Positions 2,044-19,452 of a stretch of DNA of 20,833 bases are shown here, piece by piece. The DNA comes from a phage, in assembly GCA_012060505.1 (NCBI GenBank), contig GCA_012060505.1_3027.1. One strand, 5' to 3'. The notes below the pieces were generated by a model. It was given only the letters and a program-made list of their open reading frames with translations, did no database searches and had not been told where the DNA came from. The translations under genes and the position numbers were made by a program. The stretch's first letter is position 1. Every line of letters starts with the position of its first letter.

Positions 2044-2498
2044 AGAGAGTCTCTTAATAGGTTTAACACATCAATAAATTCAGCTTCGGTTAGTATTGTA
2101 TCATCTTTTGTTAGACCACTAGCCATGCTGTGCTTCAAAACTTTTCCTTTCGAGGCTTGTAATGCATCGCGAAAGCCTCTGTTTTGAAGCGCTGCTTCAA
2201 AATACGCATTTGTGTATAATTCTTTCCAGGCTGGGGAGTATCTTGAAAACGGAACTCCAAGCCAGAAGAGGGTCCCACGGTCCTGAGCTCTAGCATAAGA
2301 CCTTCCAGCTTGTTGGGCGGCAAGCCCGGATAACCCAAATATACGACGTTGTTGTTCAACATTTTTCACCTTGCACCCTTGGAGGAATCCTTCAAGACCT
2401 CCAAATTGAATGCCATCCATAACGAAAGGCCATTGGGCGAAATTACTTAATGCACATGATGGCCATTTAAAATTGCTTCTAATCTCTAACTCAGACAT
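2040..2498 (-). CDS. NADAR/YbiA-like (DUF1768) protein (position of T4 30.3)
   Basis: Motif SNFAQWPFVMDGIQFGGLEGFLQGCK resembles the FSNF..WP...DG...E..Q..K core of YbiA/NADAR proteins as I recall it. ORF-track start at 2504 appears to be TTG; moved to in-frame ATG at 2498. Confidence 0.6.
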   Translation of the reverse strand: MSELEIRSNFKWPSCALSNFAQWPFVMDGIQFGGLEGFLQGCKVKNVEQQRRIFGLSGLAAQQAGRSYARAQDRGTLFWLGVPFSRYSPAWKELYTNAYFEAALQNRGFRDALQASKGKVLKHSMASGLTKDDTILTEAEFIDVLNLLRDSL

Positions 2499-2697
2499 TT
2501 TCAATGCTTATAATTTCAACATCAGCCCAATGACCATAGCAAGGAAGACGAAATTCAACTGGCCAGTTAGGGTCCTTTTCTAATATAATAGACTCAACTC
2601 GCGGTTCTTCATGTTCATCAGTATATGGATTTTTATCTGTTACTTTATATGTGACCTTAATGTACTGAATTCCAAAAATCTTATTAATTATATTCAT
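2491..2697 (-). CDS. Hypothetical protein, 68 aa (position of T4 30.4)
   Basis: ORF track; ATG start; ATGA overlap with upstream ORF. Confidence 0.5.
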   Translation of the reverse strand: MNIINKIFGIQYIKVTYKVTDKNPYTDEHEEPRVESIILEKDPNWPVEFRLPCYGHWADVEIISIENV

Positions 2698-2891
2698 ACT
2701 AATTCCTTTAATCCGTAGATAGGAGATAATTCATCACCCATACGAAGGTCTTCATTCCCATCTACCCAAGAAACAATATAAGCCTCTTTTATTTGAACAT
2801 TGCCCGATTTAAACGCAGGCAGAACCTTAGAAATTAATCCAGGTATACCAACTCCCTTTAATTCAACAGTTTGACCTAAAAAGAATTTCAT
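2694..2891 (-). CDS. Hypothetical protein, 65 aa (position of T4 30.5)
   Basis: ORF track; ATG start; TAATG overlap with upstream ORF. Confidence 0.5.
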   Translation of the reverse strand: MKFFLGQTVELKGVGIPGLISKVLPAFKSGNVQIKEAYIVSWVDGNEDLRMGDELSPIYGLKELV

Positions 2892-3178
2892 TAGAACCTC
2901 ATCTGAAAACCATGCGATTTAACATTCCCGCCGCCAATATCAGAAATATTAATTTCACTCGCAATTGAAGGGTCAATATCAATTTCACGATTGAGTTTAG
3001 TGATAGCTAAAGTATCACGCCCATTTACTGTACGGAATTCTAAAGGACAAACCACATCAACGTAATTTTTAATCGATTCACTGGTAGGCTGCAAATGAGC
3101 AGGAAGGTCTTTAGGTGCCTTTGAGAAAACCACTTCACAAAAATTTTTGCGGGTGTCAAAATAAGTAGTCATAAACAT
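2891..3178 (-). CDS. Hypothetical protein, 95 aa (position of T4 30.6)
   Basis: ORF track; ATG preceded by GAGGA Shine-Dalgarno. Confidence 0.55.
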   Translation of the reverse strand: MFMTTYFDTRKNFCEVVFSKAPKDLPAHLQPTSESIKNYVDVVCPLEFRTVNGRDTLAITKLNREIDIDPSIASEINISDIGGGNVKSHGFQMRF

Positions 3179-3194
3179 AATATTTTCCTCAGTA

Positions 3195-3210
3195 AGGGGC
3201 CGAAGCCCCT
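3195..3210 (-). other. Intercistronic GC hairpin with UUCG tetraloop between the 30.7- and 30.6-like ORFs
   Basis: Minus strand AGGGGC-ttcg-GCCCCT just upstream of the GAGGA Shine-Dalgarno; no U-tract in the sense direction, a T-run on the plus-strand side. Confidence 0.5.
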
Positions 3211-3219
3211 CATTTTATT

Positions 3220-3585
3220 TTAAATATCAAATTCGTTAAGAACTACATCAAAGATTGCTTCAAGATGCTCAGGTTTAGCTCTGTTACTCAGAATATGACG
3301 AATCCAAGTTTTAACCAAAAGCTTGCGATTATCACCATTCCAGCAAGGATGAGTCCCTAAATCGCGTTGACGAAAATCATCATCTAAAGCGATTTTAAAA
3401 TTTGAACCTTCCATTGTGATTGAAACCGTGATGCCATTTTCAAATCGCATATAAACGTAGTTAGGAGTCATATACTGTTCAATTTCGCATACTGATCCAT
3501 TTTGATGTTTCCAAAGGCAAATAGTATCAATAGAACCTGCAATACCATTAGAAACATATTTACGTTCAAAGTTGATGTAGTTCAT
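3220..3585 (-). CDS. Hypothetical protein, 121 aa (position of T4 30.7)
   Basis: ORF track; ATG preceded by GGAG; early-type promoter immediately upstream. Confidence 0.6.
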   Translation of the reverse strand: MNYINFERKYVSNGIAGSIDTICLWKHQNGSVCEIEQYMTPNYVYMRFENGITVSITMEGSNFKIALDDDFRQRDLGTHPCWNGDNRKLLVKTWIRHILSNRAKPEHLEAIFDVVLNEFDI

Positions 3586-3611
3586 TTTTGTTCTCCGAGA
3601 TGTTTAATTGC

Positions 3612-3651
3612 GGTACAGGTATATAATATCATATCCTGTACCAAAGTAAAC
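3612..3651 (-). promoter_or_regulatory. T4 early-type promoter upstream of the 30.7-like ORF, with the -10 inside an 8-bp inverted repeat
   Basis: Minus strand aaaataattGTTTAC-17 nt-TGaTATTAT; inverted repeat GGTACAGG...CCTGTACC flanks the -10. Confidence 0.6.
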
Positions 3652-3653
3652 AA

Positions 3654-3986
3654 TTATTTTACTACTTTCCAGTGCTTCATGTCAAGTTTACCAACTTTTT
3701 TCATCTTCTCAATCAAACGTTCGGCGCGTTGGCGAGCTGTAACATAATACCATTCACCTAATTCATTTTGTTCAATTTTTCCAACGATTACTGTATTCAA
3801 TTCATAAATCCAACCAGTAAAGAAATTATGAACTTGAATTGTAAAGGTGAAATCTGTTCCCATACCTTCTGTTGTTTCTACTTCAATAATATCACCTTCA
3901 ACTGCCATTAAGAACCACATAGTTTCGTTATATTCACCATTGAAGCATTTAGCTTTAACTGCAGCGTTCAGATTAATCGTTTTCAT
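3654..3986 (-). CDS. Hypothetical protein, 110 aa (position of T4 30.8)
   Basis: ORF track; ATG preceded by AAGGAG; lies just downstream of a terminator plus promoter. Confidence 0.6.
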   Translation of the reverse strand: MKTINLNAAVKAKCFNGEYNETMWFLMAVEGDIIEVETTEGMGTDFTFTIQVHNFFTGWIYELNTVIVGKIEQNELGEWYYVTARQRAERLIEKMKKVGKLDMKHWKVVK

Positions 3987-4011
3987 TTTATTCTCCTTTG
4001 TTTGTGTAAGA

Positions 4012-4044
4012 TAATACTATCACAAAGGAACCATACTGTAAACA
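4012..4044 (-). promoter_or_regulatory. T4 early-type promoter upstream of the 30.8-like ORF
   Basis: Minus strand GTTTAC-18 nt-TGaTAGTAT, just after the terminator; inverted repeat CCTTTGT...ACAAAGG reaches into the Shine-Dalgarno. Confidence 0.45.
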
Positions 4045-4057
4045 ACTTTATGCAATC

Positions 4058-4085
4058 TTTGGAAAATAAAAAAGGACTCCCGAAG
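4058..4085 (-). terminator. Intrinsic terminator downstream of the 30.9-like ORF
   Basis: Minus strand reads GGACTCC-ttcg-GGAGTCC (UUCG loop) followed by TTTTTTTATTTT. Confidence 0.8.
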
Positions 4086-4096
4086 GAGTCCTCAAC

Positions 4097-4273
4097 TTAT
4101 GCTTTCTGCTTACCAAAACGAGAAGCATCATCTCGAAGAACCGCACGTGCTCGGCGCATGATCTTCTCAACAGTTTGATTGATACGAGAGTTCGACCCAC
4201 GCTTGTAACCAGCGCGTTTAGAATCACCAACTTTCTTTTCAACTGCTTTCTTTGCTTTAGCTTGTTTTGCCAT
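4097..4273 (-). CDS. Small highly basic protein (position of T4 30.9); alternative longer start at 4315
   Basis: ORF track 4097..4315; product from second in-frame ATG reads MAKQAKAKKAVEKK...; intrinsic terminator follows the stop. Confidence 0.55.
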   Translation of the reverse strand: MAKQAKAKKAVEKKVGDSKRAGYKRGSNSRINQTVEKIMRRARAVLRDDASRFGKQKA

Positions 4274-4518
4274 TATAAATTCTCTTTTAAATGAAAATGC
4301 AGGACTTATTGGCATTGCCTGCGCAAGCCCTCAAGGGGAACATAGGTTTTTGGGTATTTAACGACCAGGATAACCATAAACCCGTCATCATTCACATTCA
4401 AGAGGTACACCATAAAACTGCCGGGGTCTTAAAACTATAATGATTCGCAAATCATTAATCAGACAGTTCGATGGCTCCTCGATTTTAGCTCACACTAAGG
4501 CAGTGAATCTCCAATAAA

Positions 4519-4767
4519 TTACTTCAATGTTACCACAAAGTGACGAACTGCTTTTCGTGCAGCAGAAGCCAGAGGCTTAGCATACTTAAGTTCATCTTTT
4601 TCCTGAAGCTCAGCAGCTAATGCAGTTTGAGCAGGATTTAGATGTTTGAAATAACGCAGGATTTCAAGAGCTTCGGCTTCAACATCAATAGATGCGCCAT
4701 AGTTTTCGTGACCATTATTCCATGCGTTTCGTTGCAGTTCAAGAGCGTGTTGTAATTGTTTAATCAT
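4519..4767 (-). CDS. rIII: rIII lysis-inhibition accessory protein, 82 aa
   Basis: Size, sequence MIKQLQHALELQ... and position (after gene 31) match my recollection of T4 rIII. Confidence 0.8.
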   Translation of the reverse strand: MIKQLQHALELQRNAWNNGHENYGASIDVEAEALEILRYFKHLNPAQTALAAELQEKDELKYAKPLASAARKAVRHFVVTLK

Positions 4768-11985: not shown

Positions 11986-13164
11986 TTAAAAGTATTTTTT
12001 AAAACTCATCATAACTTTATCATCAACATCATTATCAATCTGTGCAACAAGATAAGATGACAGCTCTACTTCTTGCGGTGCAGATTGAACATTATCAGAA
12101 TTAAGATATTCACGAATCCAAGGATATGGATGTTTAACCGGAGCATCGGTAATTGGGCATGGAAGACCACACTGTTTCATACGAGATACAGTTAAGTAAT
12201 CAATAAAGCTCCACATGCTATTTGTATTTAATCCAGGAACATCGCCATCTTTAAATAAATGAACTGCCCAATCTTTTTCTTGGCGGTTAACTTCCATGAA
12301 AATATCAACTGCTTCTTGTTCACACTCTTTGGCAATTTTAACCCATTCATCACCATCAGTACCGGATTGAAGTTGACGAATAATATATTGTGTACCTTTA
12401 AGATGAAGCTGCTCATCACGTGCAATAAATTTCATAATCTTCGCATTACCTTCCATGATTTCCATGTTCTTATGGAAGTTGAAAGTACATGCAAAGGATA
12501 CATAAAAACGAATAGCTTCCAGAGCATTGATAACGTGCAGACAGAGATAAAGCGACTTCATCAGGTCTCGTTTACATTCTTCCAAATGAGTGAGACTGTT
12601 TGAATATGCTTCTAAATCATATTCATTTTCAGCAAAATAACTAAAGTTTTCTTTGGCGTTTTCCCAAATACGTGTCTTGTCCAGAACATCATCATAATAA
12701 CGACCAATAGATTCAGCACGTTTCATGATAGCTTTATCTAATACAATCTCATCAAATACCTTTGACGGATCAGTATAAAGATTTCGCATAATATGAGTGT
12801 ATGAACGACTGTGAATGGTTTCACTAAAAGTCCATGTAGCAACCCATGTATCAAGGCTTGGGTCTGAAATCAATGACATAAGTACAGCAGACGGTGCACG
12901 ACCCTGAATGCTATCTAGAAGTGATTGATACTTCAGATTATTAGTAAAAATATTTTGCTGATACTGAGGAAGCTTATTAAATTGCGCAGCATCCATCATT
13001 AAGTTTACTTCTTCAGGACGCCAGAAAAATGACAACTGCTTTTCGGTTAAATCTTCAAAAACTTTATGACGTTGAATATCATAACGCGCAATACCAAGAC
13101 CTGAACCAAAAAACATAGGTTCTTTTAAAACATCAACTGGATTTGTATTAAAAACTGTGCTCAT
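11986..13164 (-). CDS. nrdB: Ribonucleotide reductase class Ia small subunit, uninterrupted
   Basis: 392-aa continuous ORF, ferritin-like R2; position after nrdA. No intron-like interruption. Confidence 0.9.
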   Translation of the reverse strand: MSTVFNTNPVDVLKEPMFFGSGLGIARYDIQRHKVFEDLTEKQLSFFWRPEEVNLMMDAAQFNKLPQYQQNIFTNNLKYQSLLDSIQGRAPSAVLMSLISDPSLDTWVATWTFSETIHSRSYTHIMRNLYTDPSKVFDEIVLDKAIMKRAESIGRYYDDVLDKTRIWENAKENFSYFAENEYDLEAYSNSLTHLEECKRDLMKSLYLCLHVINALEAIRFYVSFACTFNFHKNMEIMEGNAKIMKFIARDEQLHLKGTQYIIRQLQSGTDGDEWVKIAKECEQEAVDIFMEVNRQEKDWAVHLFKDGDVPGLNTNSMWSFIDYLTVSRMKQCGLPCPITDAPVKHPYPWIREYLNSDNVQSAPQEVELSSYLVAQIDNDVDDKVMMSFKKYF

Positions 13165-13215
13165 AAATTTTCCACTTAGTTAATAGATAGTGACTCGTCC
13201 ATGAGTCAAATTATA

Positions 13216-15480
13216 TCATAATTTACAGGATGAACAATCTTCAGCTTTTGGAGTTTCTATTTCATAATCATCAGTACCAGAACCATCACGGGTATTATGA
13301 TAATAGAAATTTTTAATGCCATAATACCATCCGTATAGCATATCATCAATCATTATTGACATTGGAACCTTTCCTTTTGGAAAAATCTGTGGGTCATAAT
13401 ATGTATTCGCTGAAGCTGATTGACATACCCATTTCAGCATAATAGCTACCTGCGTAAGATAAGGTTTATTACCTTTCTTAGCTAATTTCCATGTATAATC
13501 ATAAAGGTCTATGTTATGCTCAATATTGGGCACGACTTGATTAAAGGAGCCCTCTTTTGATTCTTTAACAGAGACTGGTCCACGTGGAGGCTCGATACCG
13601 TTTGTACTGTTAGAAACTTGGGAAGATGACTCACATGGCATAAGTGCTGATAATGTGCTATTACGGATGCCAAAGAGCTTAAGGTCTTCCCGCAGCGACG
13701 ACCAGTCACAAACGTATTTTGGAGCTGCGATTTGGTCAATCTTTTTATTGTACCAGTCGATAGGTAATTCGCCTCGAGACCAACGAGTGTCTGAATAATA
13801 TTCACAAGGTCCTTTTTCTTTGGCGAGCTTAATGGATGCTTTAATGAGTCCATACTGTAATCTCTCAAATAGTTCATGTGTTAAATCGTTAGCATCTTCA
13901 TAAGAAGCAAAGTTACTTGCCAGCCAAGCTGCATAGTTGGTAACACCTACACCAAGGTTACGACGCTTTTTAGCTTTTTCTGCTTCAGGAACTGGATATC
14001 CTTGGTAATCCAAAAGATTATCAAGAGCGCGAACTTGAACTTCTGCCAATTCATTAATTTTATCTTGGTCTTGCCAGTCAAAATTATCTAGTACGAATGC
14101 AGAGAGAGTACACAATCCAATTTCAGCATCAGGACTATTCACATCATTTGTTGGAATAGCAATTTCACAGCACAAGTTACTCTGGCGAATAGGTGCCTTT
14201 TCACGAATAAACGGAGTGTAGTTATTCGTATTATCAATGAACTGCACATAAATCCTTGCTGTTCCTGAGCGTTCAGTCATGAGCAATTCAAATAGTTCAC
14301 GGGCTTTAATACGCTTTTTACGAATATTAGGGTCTTTTTCTGCAGCTTCATACAATTCACGGAAACGGTCTTGGTCTTTAAAATAAGAATAATAAAGCTC
14401 TCCGCCCATTTCATGGGGACTGAACAAAGTAATGTAATCGTTCTTTCCAAAACGTTCCATCATCAAATCATTCAGTTGAACACCATAATCCATATGACGA
14501 ATGCGGTTTTCTTCTACACCTTTGTTATTTTTCAAAACGAGAAGATTTTCAACTTCCAAATGCCAAATAGGATAATAAGCAGTAGCAGCGCCGCCACGAA
14601 TTCCACCCTGTGAACATGATTTAACTGCAGTCTGAAAATGTTTCCAGAAAGGAATAACACCAGTATGGCGTACTTCACCCATGCCAATCTTAGAACCTTC
14701 GGCACGAATCATACCAACGTTAATACCAATTCCAGCGCGTTTAGAGATATATTCAACAATTGAAGCGGAAGCCTTATTGATAGACTTTAATGAATCACCT
14801 GCCTCAATAACAACGCATGAACTAAACTGTCGAGTCGGAGTACGGCAACCAGCCATAATAGGAGTTGGCAATGAAATCTGTCGAGTAGATACTGCTTCAT
14901 AAAAACGGATAACGTGTTTTAATCTATCAACAGGTTCATCTTGATGCAATGCCATTCCAATAGTCATAAATGCAAACTGTGGAGTTTCATAAATTTGACC
15001 AGTGGTTTTATCTTTAACTAGATATTTTTCTTTTAATTGCATCGCCCCGGAATAAGTAAATTCCATATCCCGCTCGTGCTTAATTTTTGATTCTAAAAAT
15101 GTAATTTCTTCTGCAGAATATTTTGACAACAATTCAGGGTCGTATTTACCTTCATTTACACAGTAAGAAATATGGTCAATAAATGAACGTGGTTCATACT
15201 GCCCATAAACATGCTTACGAAGAGCAAACATTAAACAGCGTGCAGCTACATATTGATAATCAGGTTCTTCAACCGAAATAGAATTCGCAGCGGCCTTAAT
15301 GACAATAGTCTGAATATCATCAGTTGTCATTCCATCACGGAGATAAGATTTAATATTTTCATATAATTCATAAGGATCGACTGATGTTCCTTCAGCTGCC
15401 CAAGATAAAACTTTAATAATTTTTTGTGGGTCAAAGCTCTGAGAAACACCACTACTTTTGATAACATTAATTAATTGCAT
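13216..15480 (-). CDS. nrdA: Ribonucleotide reductase class Ia large subunit, 754 aa
   Basis: Length matches recollected T4 NrdA; active-site region NLCCEIAIPT and C-terminal Cys pair (CSSCKL) typical of class Ia R1. Confidence 0.95.
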   Translation of the reverse strand: MQLINVIKSSGVSQSFDPQKIIKVLSWAAEGTSVDPYELYENIKSYLRDGMTTDDIQTIVIKAAANSISVEEPDYQYVAARCLMFALRKHVYGQYEPRSFIDHISYCVNEGKYDPELLSKYSAEEITFLESKIKHERDMEFTYSGAMQLKEKYLVKDKTTGQIYETPQFAFMTIGMALHQDEPVDRLKHVIRFYEAVSTRQISLPTPIMAGCRTPTRQFSSCVVIEAGDSLKSINKASASIVEYISKRAGIGINVGMIRAEGSKIGMGEVRHTGVIPFWKHFQTAVKSCSQGGIRGGAATAYYPIWHLEVENLLVLKNNKGVEENRIRHMDYGVQLNDLMMERFGKNDYITLFSPHEMGGELYYSYFKDQDRFRELYEAAEKDPNIRKKRIKARELFELLMTERSGTARIYVQFIDNTNNYTPFIREKAPIRQSNLCCEIAIPTNDVNSPDAEIGLCTLSAFVLDNFDWQDQDKINELAEVQVRALDNLLDYQGYPVPEAEKAKKRRNLGVGVTNYAAWLASNFASYEDANDLTHELFERLQYGLIKASIKLAKEKGPCEYYSDTRWSRGELPIDWYNKKIDQIAAPKYVCDWSSLREDLKLFGIRNSTLSALMPCESSSQVSNSTNGIEPPRGPVSVKESKEGSFNQVVPNIEHNIDLYDYTWKLAKKGNKPYLTQVAIMLKWVCQSASANTYYDPQIFPKGKVPMSIMIDDMLYGWYYGIKNFYYHNTRDGSGTDDYEIETPKAEDCSSCKL

Positions 15481-15797
15481 AAGTCCTCAACTTGAAAATC
15501 GTCTTTAAACAATCGGTTAACTATATGAGCTATTATATCACCATGACACGGCTTTGGTTTACATGTGCATCCTAGCCTCATTCCACGTAAAGGCTCTAAA
15601 TGTGCTTTAGTTATTTCTCCGGATTTAATTCGACGTATAAAATCTTTTTTGAATAATTCAATGGCAGCCTCCCGGCTGCCAGCATCTTTACCGACGTAAT
15701 TTCCCCAAAATGTACCACGGTGAATATTAACATCAAAGTCGGATTTATATTTATTTACTACTCGGCATATACGGCCTGTGCGGTTGTAAGTGTTCAT
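15471..15797 (-). CDS. DUF4326-like small protein (nrdA.1-like by position)
   Basis: FWGN...[11 protein letters not shown] pattern resembles the DUF4326 signature as I recall it; ATG start; 10-nt overlap with nrdA start. Confidence 0.55.
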
Positions 15798-16014
15798 ATT
15801 GTTCTTCCGTTAAAACAGTAATATCGTAGTAACAGTCAGAAGAAGTTTTAACTGTGGAAATTTTATTATCAAAATACTCACGAGTCATTTTATGAGTATA
15901 ATATTTTTTGCCATAAATGATAATAGGCTGATTTGGTCCTGGAACTTCTAACTCGCTTGGATTAGGAAGTGTAAAAAGAACTACACCAGAAGTATCTTTA
16001 AATCGTAAAATCAT
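15751..16014 (-). CDS. Hypothetical protein (nrdA.2-like by position)
   Basis: ORF track 15751..16026 appears to start at TTG; moved to in-frame ATG at 16014. Overlaps the downstream ORF by about 47 nt in another frame. Confidence 0.45.
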
Positions 16015-16034
16015 ATATCCTCGCAATAATAAAA

Positions 16035-16895
16035 TTACACCGCCATTTTTCCTTTAATTGGCGGATGAGATACATAGTTGTTAAGAACAAAATTATGAGG
16101 CTTTGCAAATTGACTCAACCAAAATACCTGCGATTCTGTGCCCCATTCATCAAATTCATCTGGAAATTTTAATTGTAATTCGCATAAATCCATAGGTTCA
16201 CGACATAAAATTTCTTTACATTGTTCTACGTGATTCATATAGATATGAGTATTACCACCAGAAAATATCAAATCTCCCGGAATAAGATTACACATCTTAG
16301 CTACAATATGAACTAACGTAGCATATGATGCAATATTAAATGGAAGACCGAGGAAAACATCTACCGAACGTTGATACCACTGAAGGTCAAGGTATCCATT
16401 ACGCACATTAAACTGATAGAACATATGACAAGGCGGTAATGCCATATATTTAAGTTCAGCTGGATTCCACGCAGAAACAATTTGACGCCTATCATTTGGC
16501 AGTTTTTTAATACGATCAATAACTTCTATAATTTGATCTACACCGCCAAAATCACGCCACTGTTTTCCATAAATTGGACCAAGTTCACCGCTATGGTATC
16601 CTAAATCTTTTGCTTGATTTTCGTAATTTTCATCCCAGACTGTTTTGCCTTGAATTAATGAATCATGTTGAATTAATCGCAAATCATTGACATTTGTGCT
16701 TCCTGATAAAAACCATATTAGCTCAGCAATGCATGCATTCCAGGCGAGCTTTTTAGTTGTTACTGCAGGAAAACCTTTGGTTAAATCCCAACGCAATTTA
16801 GTACCGAACAGAGCAATTGTTCCTGTGCCCGTTCGGTCATCGGTTTCATAGCCATTTTCAAAAATGTCTTTAATTAAATCTTGGTATTGTTTCAT
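16035..16895 (-). CDS. td: Thymidylate synthase, 286 aa, uninterrupted
   Basis: ThyA active-site motif PCH ([11 protein letters not shown]); one continuous ORF of the length recollected for T4 Td, so no intron and no I-TevI ORF. Confidence 0.95.
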
Positions 16896-16940
16896 TTAGT
16901 ACCTTATATAAATTATAATACATTTTATGAAGCTAAATAA

Positions 16941-17288
16941 TCAATACGGTTTAGCATCAAATTTTCTCTCAATTTCAGGCGTGAAATATAATTCTTTACC
17001 GCGTTTGGAAAAGCGACCAATAATATGATAATTATTCTCATCAAACGTGATATTACCAATATCCATAGCTTTCAACCAAATATCGATATTTCTATCCAGC
17101 TTTATGTCAAAATTCCAATACGGAGAACTATTACCGAAAATACTACAAGCGGATTCAGTGAAACAACTGCTATAAATCTTGTCTTTAGGAACTACTAATT
17201 GATAGACACCTTTAATAAACTGAGGACCCTGCCACTTTGGCTGTTTCTCATCTTTTTCTAATAGAATAGGGTAATAATTAAAATTCAT
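16941..17288 (-). CDS. Hypothetical protein, 115 aa, between frd and td
   Basis: ORF track; ATG start preceded by a GC-rich stretch (gcgcggcgg) unusual for this AT-rich region; no recognisable motif. Confidence 0.55.
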   Translation of the reverse strand: MNFNYYPILLEKDEKQPKWQGPQFIKGVYQLVVPKDKIYSSCFTESACSIFGNSSPYWNFDIKLDRNIDIWLKAMDIGNITFDENNYHIIGRFSKRGKELYFTPEIERKFDAKPY

Positions 17289-17307
17289 ATTTCCGCCGCG
17301 CGTTATT

Positions 17308-18130
<823 letters not shown>

Positions 18131-18134
<4 letters not shown>

Positions 18135-18490
18135 ATTATCTCCCATTGAAAAGAGTCATGAGCATATCCGCTAGCGTCAATCATTTTAACTAAAGTTACC
18201 ATTCCTCTGTTAACTGCTTGCGCGATTTCATCAAAAACTTCGTCACTATCATCGTAAAGATCATTAAAAAGTTCTAACACGTTCTTCTGAACTTTTAATT
18301 TACGGCCGACAATTTCGCCTACAGTAAATTCGTTTCCGCCAAATCCAGCGTAAAATGTAATTACACCCATTAACTGGCTTTCACGAGAATCTATGTCGTG
18401 TGATAAATTAATAAAAGCCGTCCCAGGCGCGGTTTTAAGTTGGCAACGAATTTTTACTTGGGTAATTCCAGTTATATGAATGTTAGACAT
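18131..18490 (-). CDS. Hypothetical protein, 119 aa
   Basis: ORF track; ATG preceded by GAGGAAA. Confidence 0.55.
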
Positions 18491-18803: not shown

Positions 18804-19064
18804 TTATTTTTGAATTTTATCGAGCCACTTACCAAGCTTAATCATTTCTTTAGTAGCCTTTTCCATACTTCTGAACTTAACCAATAGAGGATAGGTATCG
18901 ACACCCATAACTAAATTGGTTGCAAGACTGTGTTCACCCACAAGCCATAACGAATACGTTTGAATATCGAGTCCGTAATTTCTGTCTTTATGGACCCGTA
19001 CACCCATCACTTCAAATTTCTCACTAGCTTTTTCTACCGCATCCAGGAAATCATCTTTAGTCAT
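18804..19064 (-). CDS. Hypothetical protein (frd.1-like by position); longer alternative start at 19106
   Basis: ORF track 18804..19106; start at 19106 would overlap the upstream ORF by about 41 nt with no Shine-Dalgarno, whereas the in-frame ATG at 19064 follows the upstream TAA. Confidence 0.45.
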   Translation of the reverse strand: MTKDDFLDAVEKASEKFEVMGVRVHKDRNYGLDIQTYSLWLVGEHSLATNLVMGVDTYPLLVKFRSMEKATKEMIKLGKWLDKIQK

Positions 19065-19065
19065 A

Positions 19066-19452
19066 TTAGGCCTTAAAAGTTTTTCGCAAAAGTTCAATGA
19101 TTTCATCTACATTGTTTTCATCAACAATGCAGTGAATTTTTGTTACGCCAGAAACTATACCTTCATTAGCGGATTGAGGCTTTTCTAAAGTTACCTCAGT
19201 AAAGTATTTGAATTCTTCAGAGTAAATCTCAAAATACGTCTCAAGTGGGCCACCCGCCATGTATTCAGTGCCGTCTTCCATAGTTACACGTACCACACAG
19301 TCACCAGCACAATCATCACTTTCCATTTCATCTACAACAAAACTAGGTCCGTGCTTCTCTATTAAATTTAGCATCATTACATTGCAACGGCACTCGTTAG
19401 CAAAGTCATTTTTAAATAAAGGGTTAATGATATAAGTTTTTCCAACTTCCAC
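19066..19452 (-). CDS. Hypothetical protein, 128 aa (frd.2-like by position); apparent GTG start
   Basis: ORF track; start codon reads GTG with GAGGAAA 7 nt upstream; a GC hairpin lies just upstream. Confidence 0.5.
   Translation of the reverse strand: MEVGKTYIINPLFKNDFANECRCNVMMLNLIEKHGPSFVVDEMESDDCAGDCVVRVTMEDGTEYMAGGPLETYFEIYSEEFKYFTEVTLEKPQSANEGIVSGVTKIHCIVDENNVDEIIELLRKTFKA

Follow-up and report, generated by a model that had tools for sequence, protein, structure and literature searches.

Two small overlapping genes upstream of nrdA in a T4-like phage: a conserved 47-nucleotide overlap that probably joins two unconstrained protein tails

The present analysis concerns two small overlapping genes, nrdA.2 and nrdA.1, on a stretch of phage DNA of 20,833 nucleotides (nt) (NCBI GenBank assembly GCA_012060505.1, contig GCA_012060505.1_3027.1), which is referred to as the window throughout. 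The window belongs to a T4-like myovirus of the genus Tequatrovirus: the 901 nt from position 15300 to 16200 are 99.3% identical to NiC89 and 98.9% identical to RB51, wV7 and many others, and 515 phage records match this stretch in total. In order of transcription, the minus strand carries frd, an open reading frame (ORF) of 115 amino acids (aa), an intron-less td, an ORF of 87 aa (nrdA.2), an ORF of 108 aa (nrdA.1), nrdA and nrdB. The features that bear directly on the two small genes are the following:

15751..16014, minus strand: nrdA.2 coding sequence, 87 aa plus stop, DUF5496 (Pfam, phrog_2458, T4 annotation)
15471..15797, minus strand: nrdA.1 coding sequence, 108 aa plus stop, single-domain DUF4326 (ORF, Pfam, phrog_464, T4 orthology)
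15528..15767, minus strand: DUF4326 domain, NrdA.1 residues 11-90; the envelope covers profile positions 1-81 of 82
15751..15797, minus strand: 47-nt out-of-frame overlap, encoding NrdA.2 residues 73-87 plus stop and NrdA.1 residues 1-16
15795..15797, minus strand: nrdA.1 start ATG, made up of the last two bases of the NrdA.2 Tyr73 codon (TAT) and the first base of codon 74
15804..15808, minus strand: weak Shine-Dalgarno (SD)-like GGAAG, 6 nt before the nrdA.1 ATG and inside nrdA.2, -3.5 kcal/mol with the anti-SD sequence
15756..15758, minus strand: nrdA.1 codon 14, GTA in the window, GTG in T4, RB51 and 11 others
15751..15753, minus strand: nrdA.2 stop TAA, which in the nrdA.1 frame is the last base of Asn15 (AAT) followed by the first two of Lys16 (AAA)
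15537..15575, minus strand: signature loop L-G-C77-T-C79-K-P81-K-P-C84-H85-G86-D87 of NrdA.1, between strand 74-77 and helix 85-96 of the structural model

The initial annotation had likened the 108-aa ORF to the DUF4326 family on account of an FWGN pattern and a second motif, which correspond to NrdA.1 residues 30-33 and 77-87, respectively. A profile search returned a full-length match of this ORF to Pfam PF14216 (DUF4326) with an E-value of 5.5e-22 and 78.7 bits (cut-off 25), and the product also matched phrog_464 (E 7.6e-49). The upstream ORF is open from 15751 to 16026 on the minus strand, and its ATG at 16014, which carries a GAGGA SD, gives the 87-aa product that matched Pfam PF17600 (DUF5496; E 4.8e-53, 177.6 bits, cut-off 27) and phrog_2458. 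Among 14 related phages, all six variable sites in nrdA.1 outside the overlap were third codon positions, which, together with the Pfam E-value, indicates that nrdA.1 is not a chance ORF. NCBIfam holds no family for the products of nrdA.1, nrdA.2 or the 115-aa ORF.

Comparison with T4 identified the two ORFs as orthologues of nrdA.1 and nrdA.2, with the order td-nrdA.2-nrdA.1-nrdA conserved. T4 nrdA.1 (T4p235, NP_049846, UniProt P32279) likewise encodes 108 aa, starts at the same ATG and has the same 10-nt stop/start overlap with nrdA and the same 47-nt overlap with nrdA.2; its product shares 94% amino acid identity with that of the window and differs from it only within residues 2-10 (T4: MTNYSSVGRL). 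T4 nrdA.2 (T4p236, NP_049847, UniProt P32280) encodes 87 aa with 86% identity, lies in the same place after td and ends at the same stop, but the 14 C-terminal residues of its product (DELFQRGPSMPGSE in T4) are strongly unlike those of the window protein. Unlike in T4, the td gene upstream of nrdA.2 is intron-less in the window. nrdA.2 and nrdA.1 are real small genes of the nucleotide-metabolism cluster of T4, each of which is translated separately. Both are already annotated in T4, so that the initial observation is correct but known; in the full-text literature searched, nrdA.1 was named only as a table entry and PF14216 was not mentioned.

The start of nrdA.1 had been placed about 47 nt inside the upstream ORF in another frame, and the overlap proved to be exactly 47 nt long. 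The T4 RefSeq record carries the identical overlap at 142951..142997 (nrdA.1 142671..142997, nrdA.2 142951..143214), and the arrangement was therefore already known. At its downstream end, the nrdA.2 stop arises from the conserved VVNK motif of DUF4326. The ATG as well as the 47-nt overlap were invariant in all 14 Tequatrovirus sequences; neither a lack of a DUF4326 match nor orthologue starts that remove the overlap were encountered in this genus. The overlap is real and is a conserved feature of Tequatrovirus.

To characterize the overlap further, variable sites and nucleotide diversity (pi) were determined per segment in the 14 Tequatrovirus sequences. In the overlap, 18 of 47 sites were variable (38%; pi 0.126), compared to 24 of 217 (11%; pi 0.0385) in the rest of nrdA.2 and 6 of 270 (2%; pi 0.0057) in the rest of nrdA.1. 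This excess of variable sites in the overlap corresponds to a hypergeometric P of 4e-9, the sequences representing about three haplotypes. While 18 of the 24 variable sites in the rest of nrdA.2 were third codon positions, those in the overlap were distributed 7/6/5 over the codon phases, the even spread that is expected with neither frame being constrained. At the protein level, NrdA.1 residues 13-108 were identical among the intact sequences compared and residues 2-12 differed between haplotypes; in NrdA.2, about four positions differed within residues 1-69, and residues 71-87 differed between haplotypes. The raised nucleotide conservation of a dual-coding constraint was not found in the overlap, which was the most variable of the segments and had no phase bias. 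In our interpretation, two tails meet here in a neutral, hypervariable junction, the opposite of a constrained dual-coding region.

In addition, the body of nrdA.1 (15471-15750) was near-invariant even at synonymous sites, unlike the adjacent nrdA.2 (15798-16014), suggesting a recent sweep or a gene-conversion tract covering nrdA.1-nrdA.

A variable-site density 3.5- to 17-fold above that of the flanks could also reflect a functional overlap, in which diversifying selection acts on the N-terminus of NrdA.1 and/or the C-terminus of NrdA.2, e.g., for escape from a host sensor, and nearly every change within the overlap alters at least one of the two proteins. However, the even spread over the codon phases is what neutrality predicts, only about three overlap haplotypes occur in the sample, many other genera have a far shorter N-terminal extension of NrdA.1, and distant homologues of NrdA.2 end in an unrelated tail. 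No defence-related evidence turned up, although no PADLOC scan was made. Diversifying selection on the tails is thus improbable.

nrdA.1 is most likely initiated independently at the weak internal GGAAG. The duplex energy of this motif with the anti-SD sequence is in the range of those of nrdB (-3.3 kcal/mol) and td (-4.0 kcal/mol), whereas nrdA.2 and nrdA reach -5.9 kcal/mol. In the T4 proteome, NrdA.2 has been classed as 'middle' like Td, and NrdA.1 as 'late' like NrdA and NrdB (PMC9697503, supplementary files 4 and 6). The different temporal classes indicate that both proteins are made and count against an obligatory fusion; the N-terminus of NrdA.1 is left undefined by these data. The predicted fold of the region 15730-15870 was no more stable than those of shuffled sequences (z 0.58), and neither a conserved slippery heptamer nor a stimulatory structure, as in a programmed frameshift site, was found in the overlap. 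Sigma-70-like promoters and terminators did not occur above chance, no MotA box or late-promoter consensus was present near the locus, and Rfam had no match across the whole window. Repeats near the locus were unrelated to the overlap.

Alternatively, nrdA.1 might not be translated independently and either depend on backward re-initiation by ribosomes that have terminated on nrdA.2, the ATG being located 44 nt upstream of the stop, or be produced as an NrdA.2-NrdA.1 frameshift fusion. In bacteria and phages, re-initiation over short distances in both directions is known; moreover, nrdA.1 has a weak SD, and its frame is open for just four codons before the ATG, so that any shift must fall within the overlap. 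On the other hand, the SDs of nrdB and td are equally weak, the bases ahead of the ATG vary (GAAGAACAA, GAAAAACAA, GAACAACAA), and the absence of a conserved heptamer and of a stimulatory RNA structure as well as the middle versus late appearance of the two T4 proteins speak against obligatory coupling or fusion. The short 'ATGA'-type junctions of T4-like phages likewise connect same-strand, tightly packed early genes, but the position of the nrdA.1 start, 44 nt upstream of the nrdA.2 stop, makes classical termination-reinitiation inapplicable here. Therefore, dependence of nrdA.1 on nrdA.2 translation appears very improbable.

With regard to the start codon, the ATG at 15797 is the sole ATG, GTG or TTG between the upstream in-frame stop, four codons before, and the DUF4326 domain, and is the only start that preserves this domain. 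The Tyr73 codon of NrdA.2 that contributes to the ATG was always TAT and never TAC, and codon 74 was GAA, GAC or GCC, always with G in first position, while the later bases varied freely. Within the family, Val13 is kept in 126 of 143 representatives, Val14 in 139 of 144 and Asn15 in 139 of 145.

In prokaryotic annotations, a long overlap of genes on the same strand frequently results from a mis-called start. A start at the codon-14 GTG, which occurs in 13 of the 14 Tequatrovirus sequences and from which the RB51 and MLF4 records derive a 95-aa product, would reduce the real overlap to 8 nt and turn the 47 nt into an annotation artefact. This start can be dismissed almost entirely, as codon 14 reads GTA in the window (of the 14 sequences, only the window has A at position 15756, the other 13 having G) and a GTG start is non-existent there, as no SD motif was seen by eye ahead of the GTG, as the ATG is invariant although 38% of the sites around it vary, and as starting at codon 14 drops Cys11-Val13, replaces Val14 and cuts into both the first strand (residues 12-15) and the Pfam domain, which begins at residue 11. 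That the GTA of the window removes the sole alternative start is a modest new point.

The arrangement in other phages provides an indication of how the overlap may have arisen. By tblastn, nrdA.2 was restricted to Tequatrovirus and to 35-40% identical homologues in putatively Mosigvirus-type phages, and only 12 near-identical NrdA.2 clusters were found. In one putatively Mosigvirus-type locus (L029), an 81-aa homologue of NrdA.2 is encoded downstream of nrdA.1, and its similarity stops at residues 73-76, the site of the nrdA.1 ATG in the window. In other T4-like genera, the gene upstream of nrdA.1 differs from nrdA.2 and is overlapped by nrdA.1 by no more than about 14 nt, with 4 nt in most loci. 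Many of the NrdA.1 homologues in these genera begin two to three residues before position 11 (Cys/Thr), others extend by up to 14 aa. In the AlphaFold model of NrdA.1, the predicted local distance difference test (pLDDT) score is 89.3 overall and 62 on average for residues 1-10.

A small accessory ORF, nrdA.2, would have been placed ahead of nrdA.1, so that nrdA.1 begins at an ATG that coincides with the end of the conserved NrdA.2 core (Tyr73/Glu74). From there, the frame of nrdA.2 would simply continue to the first stop, the TAA provided by the Asn15-Lys16 codons of nrdA.1. The shared 47 nt would accordingly consist of two dispensable tails, the N-terminal extension of NrdA.1 and the C-terminus of NrdA.2. 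Because the overlap is the most variable segment, has no phase bias and encodes tails that are not conserved elsewhere, it is best regarded as a by-product of the placement of nrdA.2 before nrdA.1 and not as a regulatory or dual-coding device.

The domain encoded by nrdA.1 is widespread: at E<=1e-3, the DUF4326 profile retrieved 9,623 clusters (50% identity), and a scan of bacterial and archaeal genomes with a degenerate DNA motif yielded at least 120 loci, of which 117 ORFs from many phyla were confirmed as DUF4326. Invariant throughout the family are V14, N15, D22, I25, R27, G32, N33, L70, L75, G76, C77, C79, P81, C84, H85, G86 and D87. Among 150 representatives, C77, C79 and C84 occur in 149-150, and H85 and P81 in 149 each; Cys11 is not conserved across DUF4326. 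The window protein has all of the conserved elements VVN, D, R, WGN(P) and LGCxCxPxxCHGD with the exception of Pro34, which is replaced by Tyr. Compared to DUF4326 at large, the T4-like subgroup is characterized by GNY instead of GNP and by His26 instead of Gly, and its members are stand-alone domains, whereas about a quarter of the motif-selected bacterial sample are mSLOG-DUF4326 fusions (29 of 117, and 29 of the 59 long bacterial members). The NrdA.1 model matched twelve DUF4326 models in BFVD at E<=1e-3, with query-normalised template-modelling (TM) scores of 0.6-0.83; these come from phages, haloarchaeal viruses and giant viruses. No solved structure resembling the DUF4326 model was found. 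In the model, the CxCxPxxCHGD loop is a candidate active or metal site.

DUF4326 domains were found fused to mSLOG or YAcAr SLOG, NADAR, TIR, T7-type RNA polymerase and PolA, and also occur as tandem repeats. In bacteria (loci L095-L214, e.g., L109 at 2825-3873), the 150 neighbouring ORFs include 20 DUF488 proteins, the commonest type, followed by YAcAr SLOG with 8. DUF488 often directly abuts the mSLOG-DUF4326 fusion, which suggests that both form a conserved two-gene module in bacteria; a function of DUF488 was not found in the literature searched. The chromosome of one metagenome-assembled genome (OZ241875.1) carries at least six DUF4326 copies.

Among phages, nrdA was found 0-580 nt downstream of nrdA.1 in all 38 T4-like loci (L003-L040), six loci of 174-180-kb phages have the order td-nrdA-nrdB-nrdA.1, and in one locus (L046) DUF4326 neighbours a divergent NrdA of 1223 aa. 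In a 348.5-kb jumbo phage (L066), the DUF4326 gene (3983-4315) is located between nrdD (2106-3971) and nrdG (4287-4754), which is a second adjacency to ribonucleotide reductase (RNR) genes and independent of that in T4-like phages. Neighbours in other phages include Td, Rnl1, Thg1, NAMPT, a CCA-adding-type nucleotidyltransferase and an RNA-repair HAD domain. Jumbo phages of 350-380 kb (L063, L070, L074, L075, L079 and L081, compared with L066) seemingly have at least two DUF4326 paralogues; probably one of these lies beside Thg1-like genes, judging from Pfam counts pooled over loci, and the other between nrdD and nrdG. The linkage of nrdA.1 to nrdA is tight and widespread, and DUF4326 is also found between class III RNR genes in an unrelated phage, which is a modest new point.

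For DUF4326, a role as phospho-ribose/ADP-ribose (adenosine diphosphate ribose) phosphatase has been proposed (Iyer, Burroughs and Aravind). The contextual observations of these authors are reproduced by the fusions and neighbours seen here, and the published idea is plausible but unproven; biochemical data on a phosphatase or sulfurtransferase activity of DUF4326 were not found in the literature searched. Our tentative reading is that NrdA.1 may be a small cysteine-dependent enzyme that acts on the ribose-attached phosphate of a nucleotide- or ADP-ribose-derived small molecule. The strand-loop-helix with the CxCxPxxCHGD motif would carry out the chemistry, and NrdA.1 would be expressed together with RNR in T4-like phages. 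In the model, the invariant cysteines lie in a strand(74-77)-loop-helix(85-96) arrangement, but the Arg of the CX5R P-loop of cysteine phosphatases and rhodaneses (e.g., the dual-specificity phosphatases (DUSPs), PTEN and Cdc25) is absent in NrdA.1, in which the pattern is C79-x5-H85.

The invariant loop could also belong to a small zinc-binding (Cys3-His) module, so that DUF4326 proteins, including NrdA.1, would act as adaptors or regulators that bind RNR, nucleic acid or a nucleotide. We regard such a module as rather unlikely, as the invariant polar residues N15, D22, R27, N33, R42 and D87 look like a substrate-binding or catalytic constellation and not like a metal site alone, as the recurrent fusions to SLOG, NADAR and TIR and the tandem triplication fit an enzyme, and as the adjacent Cys84 and His85 would be awkward for chelating one ion. 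The more specific proposal that NrdA.1/DUF4326 is an accessory enzyme of deoxyribonucleoside triphosphate (dNTP) synthesis, i.e., a cysteine-based ribose-phosphate hydrolase co-translated with RNR, is speculative and to be viewed as doubtful.

Several points weigh against this account of the two genes as a whole. The start of nrdA.1 is deduced from sequence and conservation only, and the 14 sequences comprise about three overlap haplotypes, so that the variable-site counts are not independent events. The AlphaFold model of NrdA.2 has a pLDDT of 40.6, and disorder of its tail is deduced from non-conservation only. Four loci of Aeh1-like phages (221-233 kb) keep nrdA.1 near td without an adjacent nrdA, and the RNR linkage within the T4-like phages is largely inherited synteny. 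Nevertheless, the combination of the identity of the two genes, a genuine overlap, unconstrained tails, an independent nrdA.1 start and, with less certainty, the function outlined above is the best explanation, and we consider it probable as a whole.

The following features surround the two small genes:

17308-17889, minus strand: frd
16941-17288, minus strand: 115-aa ORF between frd and td
16035..16895, minus strand: td (286 aa), intron-less
15484..15488, minus strand: GAGGA SD of nrdA, within the Glu-Asp codons of the NrdA.1 C-terminal 'EDL', -5.9 kcal/mol
15471..15480, minus strand: 10-nt overlap of the nrdA.1 stop and the nrdA start (ATGCAATTAA)
13216..15480, minus strand: nrdA

The 10-nt junction between nrdA.1 and nrdA was identical across the 11 Tequatrovirus sequences scored for it, and GAGGA is kept at the 3' end of nrdA.1 in most loci in which nrdA directly follows. 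In the window (15484-15488) and in the T4-like loci L003-L040, the conserved Glu-Asp-Leu at the NrdA.1 C-terminus is coded by GAGGA(C/T), i.e., by the SD of nrdA. Most NrdA.1 homologues without nrdA directly after them have other C-termini (e.g., ...LDI or ...DKIYL) and no GAGGA; in three loci with a 60-nt spacer, EDL is retained, but coded by GAAGAC. As EDL is coded by GAGGA and mostly changed where nrdA is not adjacent, part of the conservation of the NrdA.1 C-terminus may represent a translation signal for nrdA.

In the initial annotation, the 47-nt overlap had been considered longer than the other overlaps of 1-10 nt in the window. This holds once starts wrongly assigned to a first ATG are corrected, and most other same-strand junctions are overlaps of 1, 4 or 10 nt. 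Two apparent exceptions were rejected. An overlap of 41 nt at 19066..19106 between the ORFs 19066-19452 (frd.2-like) and 18804-19106 is a first-ATG artefact; the Met15 ATG at 19064 is located one base past the upstream TAA, has an AAGG SD and is annotated as the start in RB51. For an overlap of 16 nt at 18131..18146, a start at Met5, judged from the translation, gives a 4-nt ATGA overlap.

With respect to the wider locus (11986-16895), nrdB (392 aa) is intron-less and separated from nrdA by 51 nt, and the window lacks the I-TevI-containing td intron and the I-TevIII-containing nrdB intron of T4 as well as mobE and nrdB.1. While frd and td overlap directly in T4, the window has the 115-aa ORF between them. 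The two copies of a 12-nt direct repeat, TTGTTTCATTTA (16887-16898) and TTATTTCATTTA (17303-17314), lie on either side of this ORF and span the start regions of td and frd. In RB51, the ORF is labelled 'RB32ORF229c, flanked by 9 bp repeat', and it resembles an accessory ORF that has been inserted. A record of the identical NrdA.2 sequence exists under Escherichia coli (locus tag EHD75_004811), and the window seems to be a whole phage-derived contig within a bacterial assembly.

The treatment of nrdA.1 in public records is inconsistent. The gene starts at the ATG in T4, ECO07P1, ECO07P2 and UFV11, at codon 14 in RB51 (L002) and MLF4 (L088), and is omitted from the records of HP3.2 (L090) and IME537 (L091, NC_054921). 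In IME537, a 2-nt insertion in an A-run causes a frameshift in nrdA.1, which is probably a sequencing error. In several deposited genomes of T4-like phages, nrdA.1 is left out or shortened by gene callers with a penalty on overlaps, and the T4 reference annotation should be propagated. The locus therefore provides a clear case of a long (47-nt) same-strand overlap that is real, the overlap itself being unremarkable as two unconstrained tails.

The significance of nrdA.1 lies in its being the model-phage member of DUF4326, a family with some 9,600 clusters over phages, giant viruses, archaeal viruses and bacteria and with an invariant Cys/His loop. T4 genetics makes the ribose-phosphate hypothesis and a possible link to RNR testable. 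If NrdA.1 were indeed an accessory enzyme of dNTP synthesis, it could provide or remove a metabolite derived from nucleotides, or neutralise a host immune signal derived from a nucleotide or nicotinamide adenine dinucleotide (NAD) that would otherwise stop dNTP production. Such a role would explain why DUF4326 immediately precedes nrdA in T4-like phages and lies between nrdD and nrdG in a jumbo phage that is unrelated to them.

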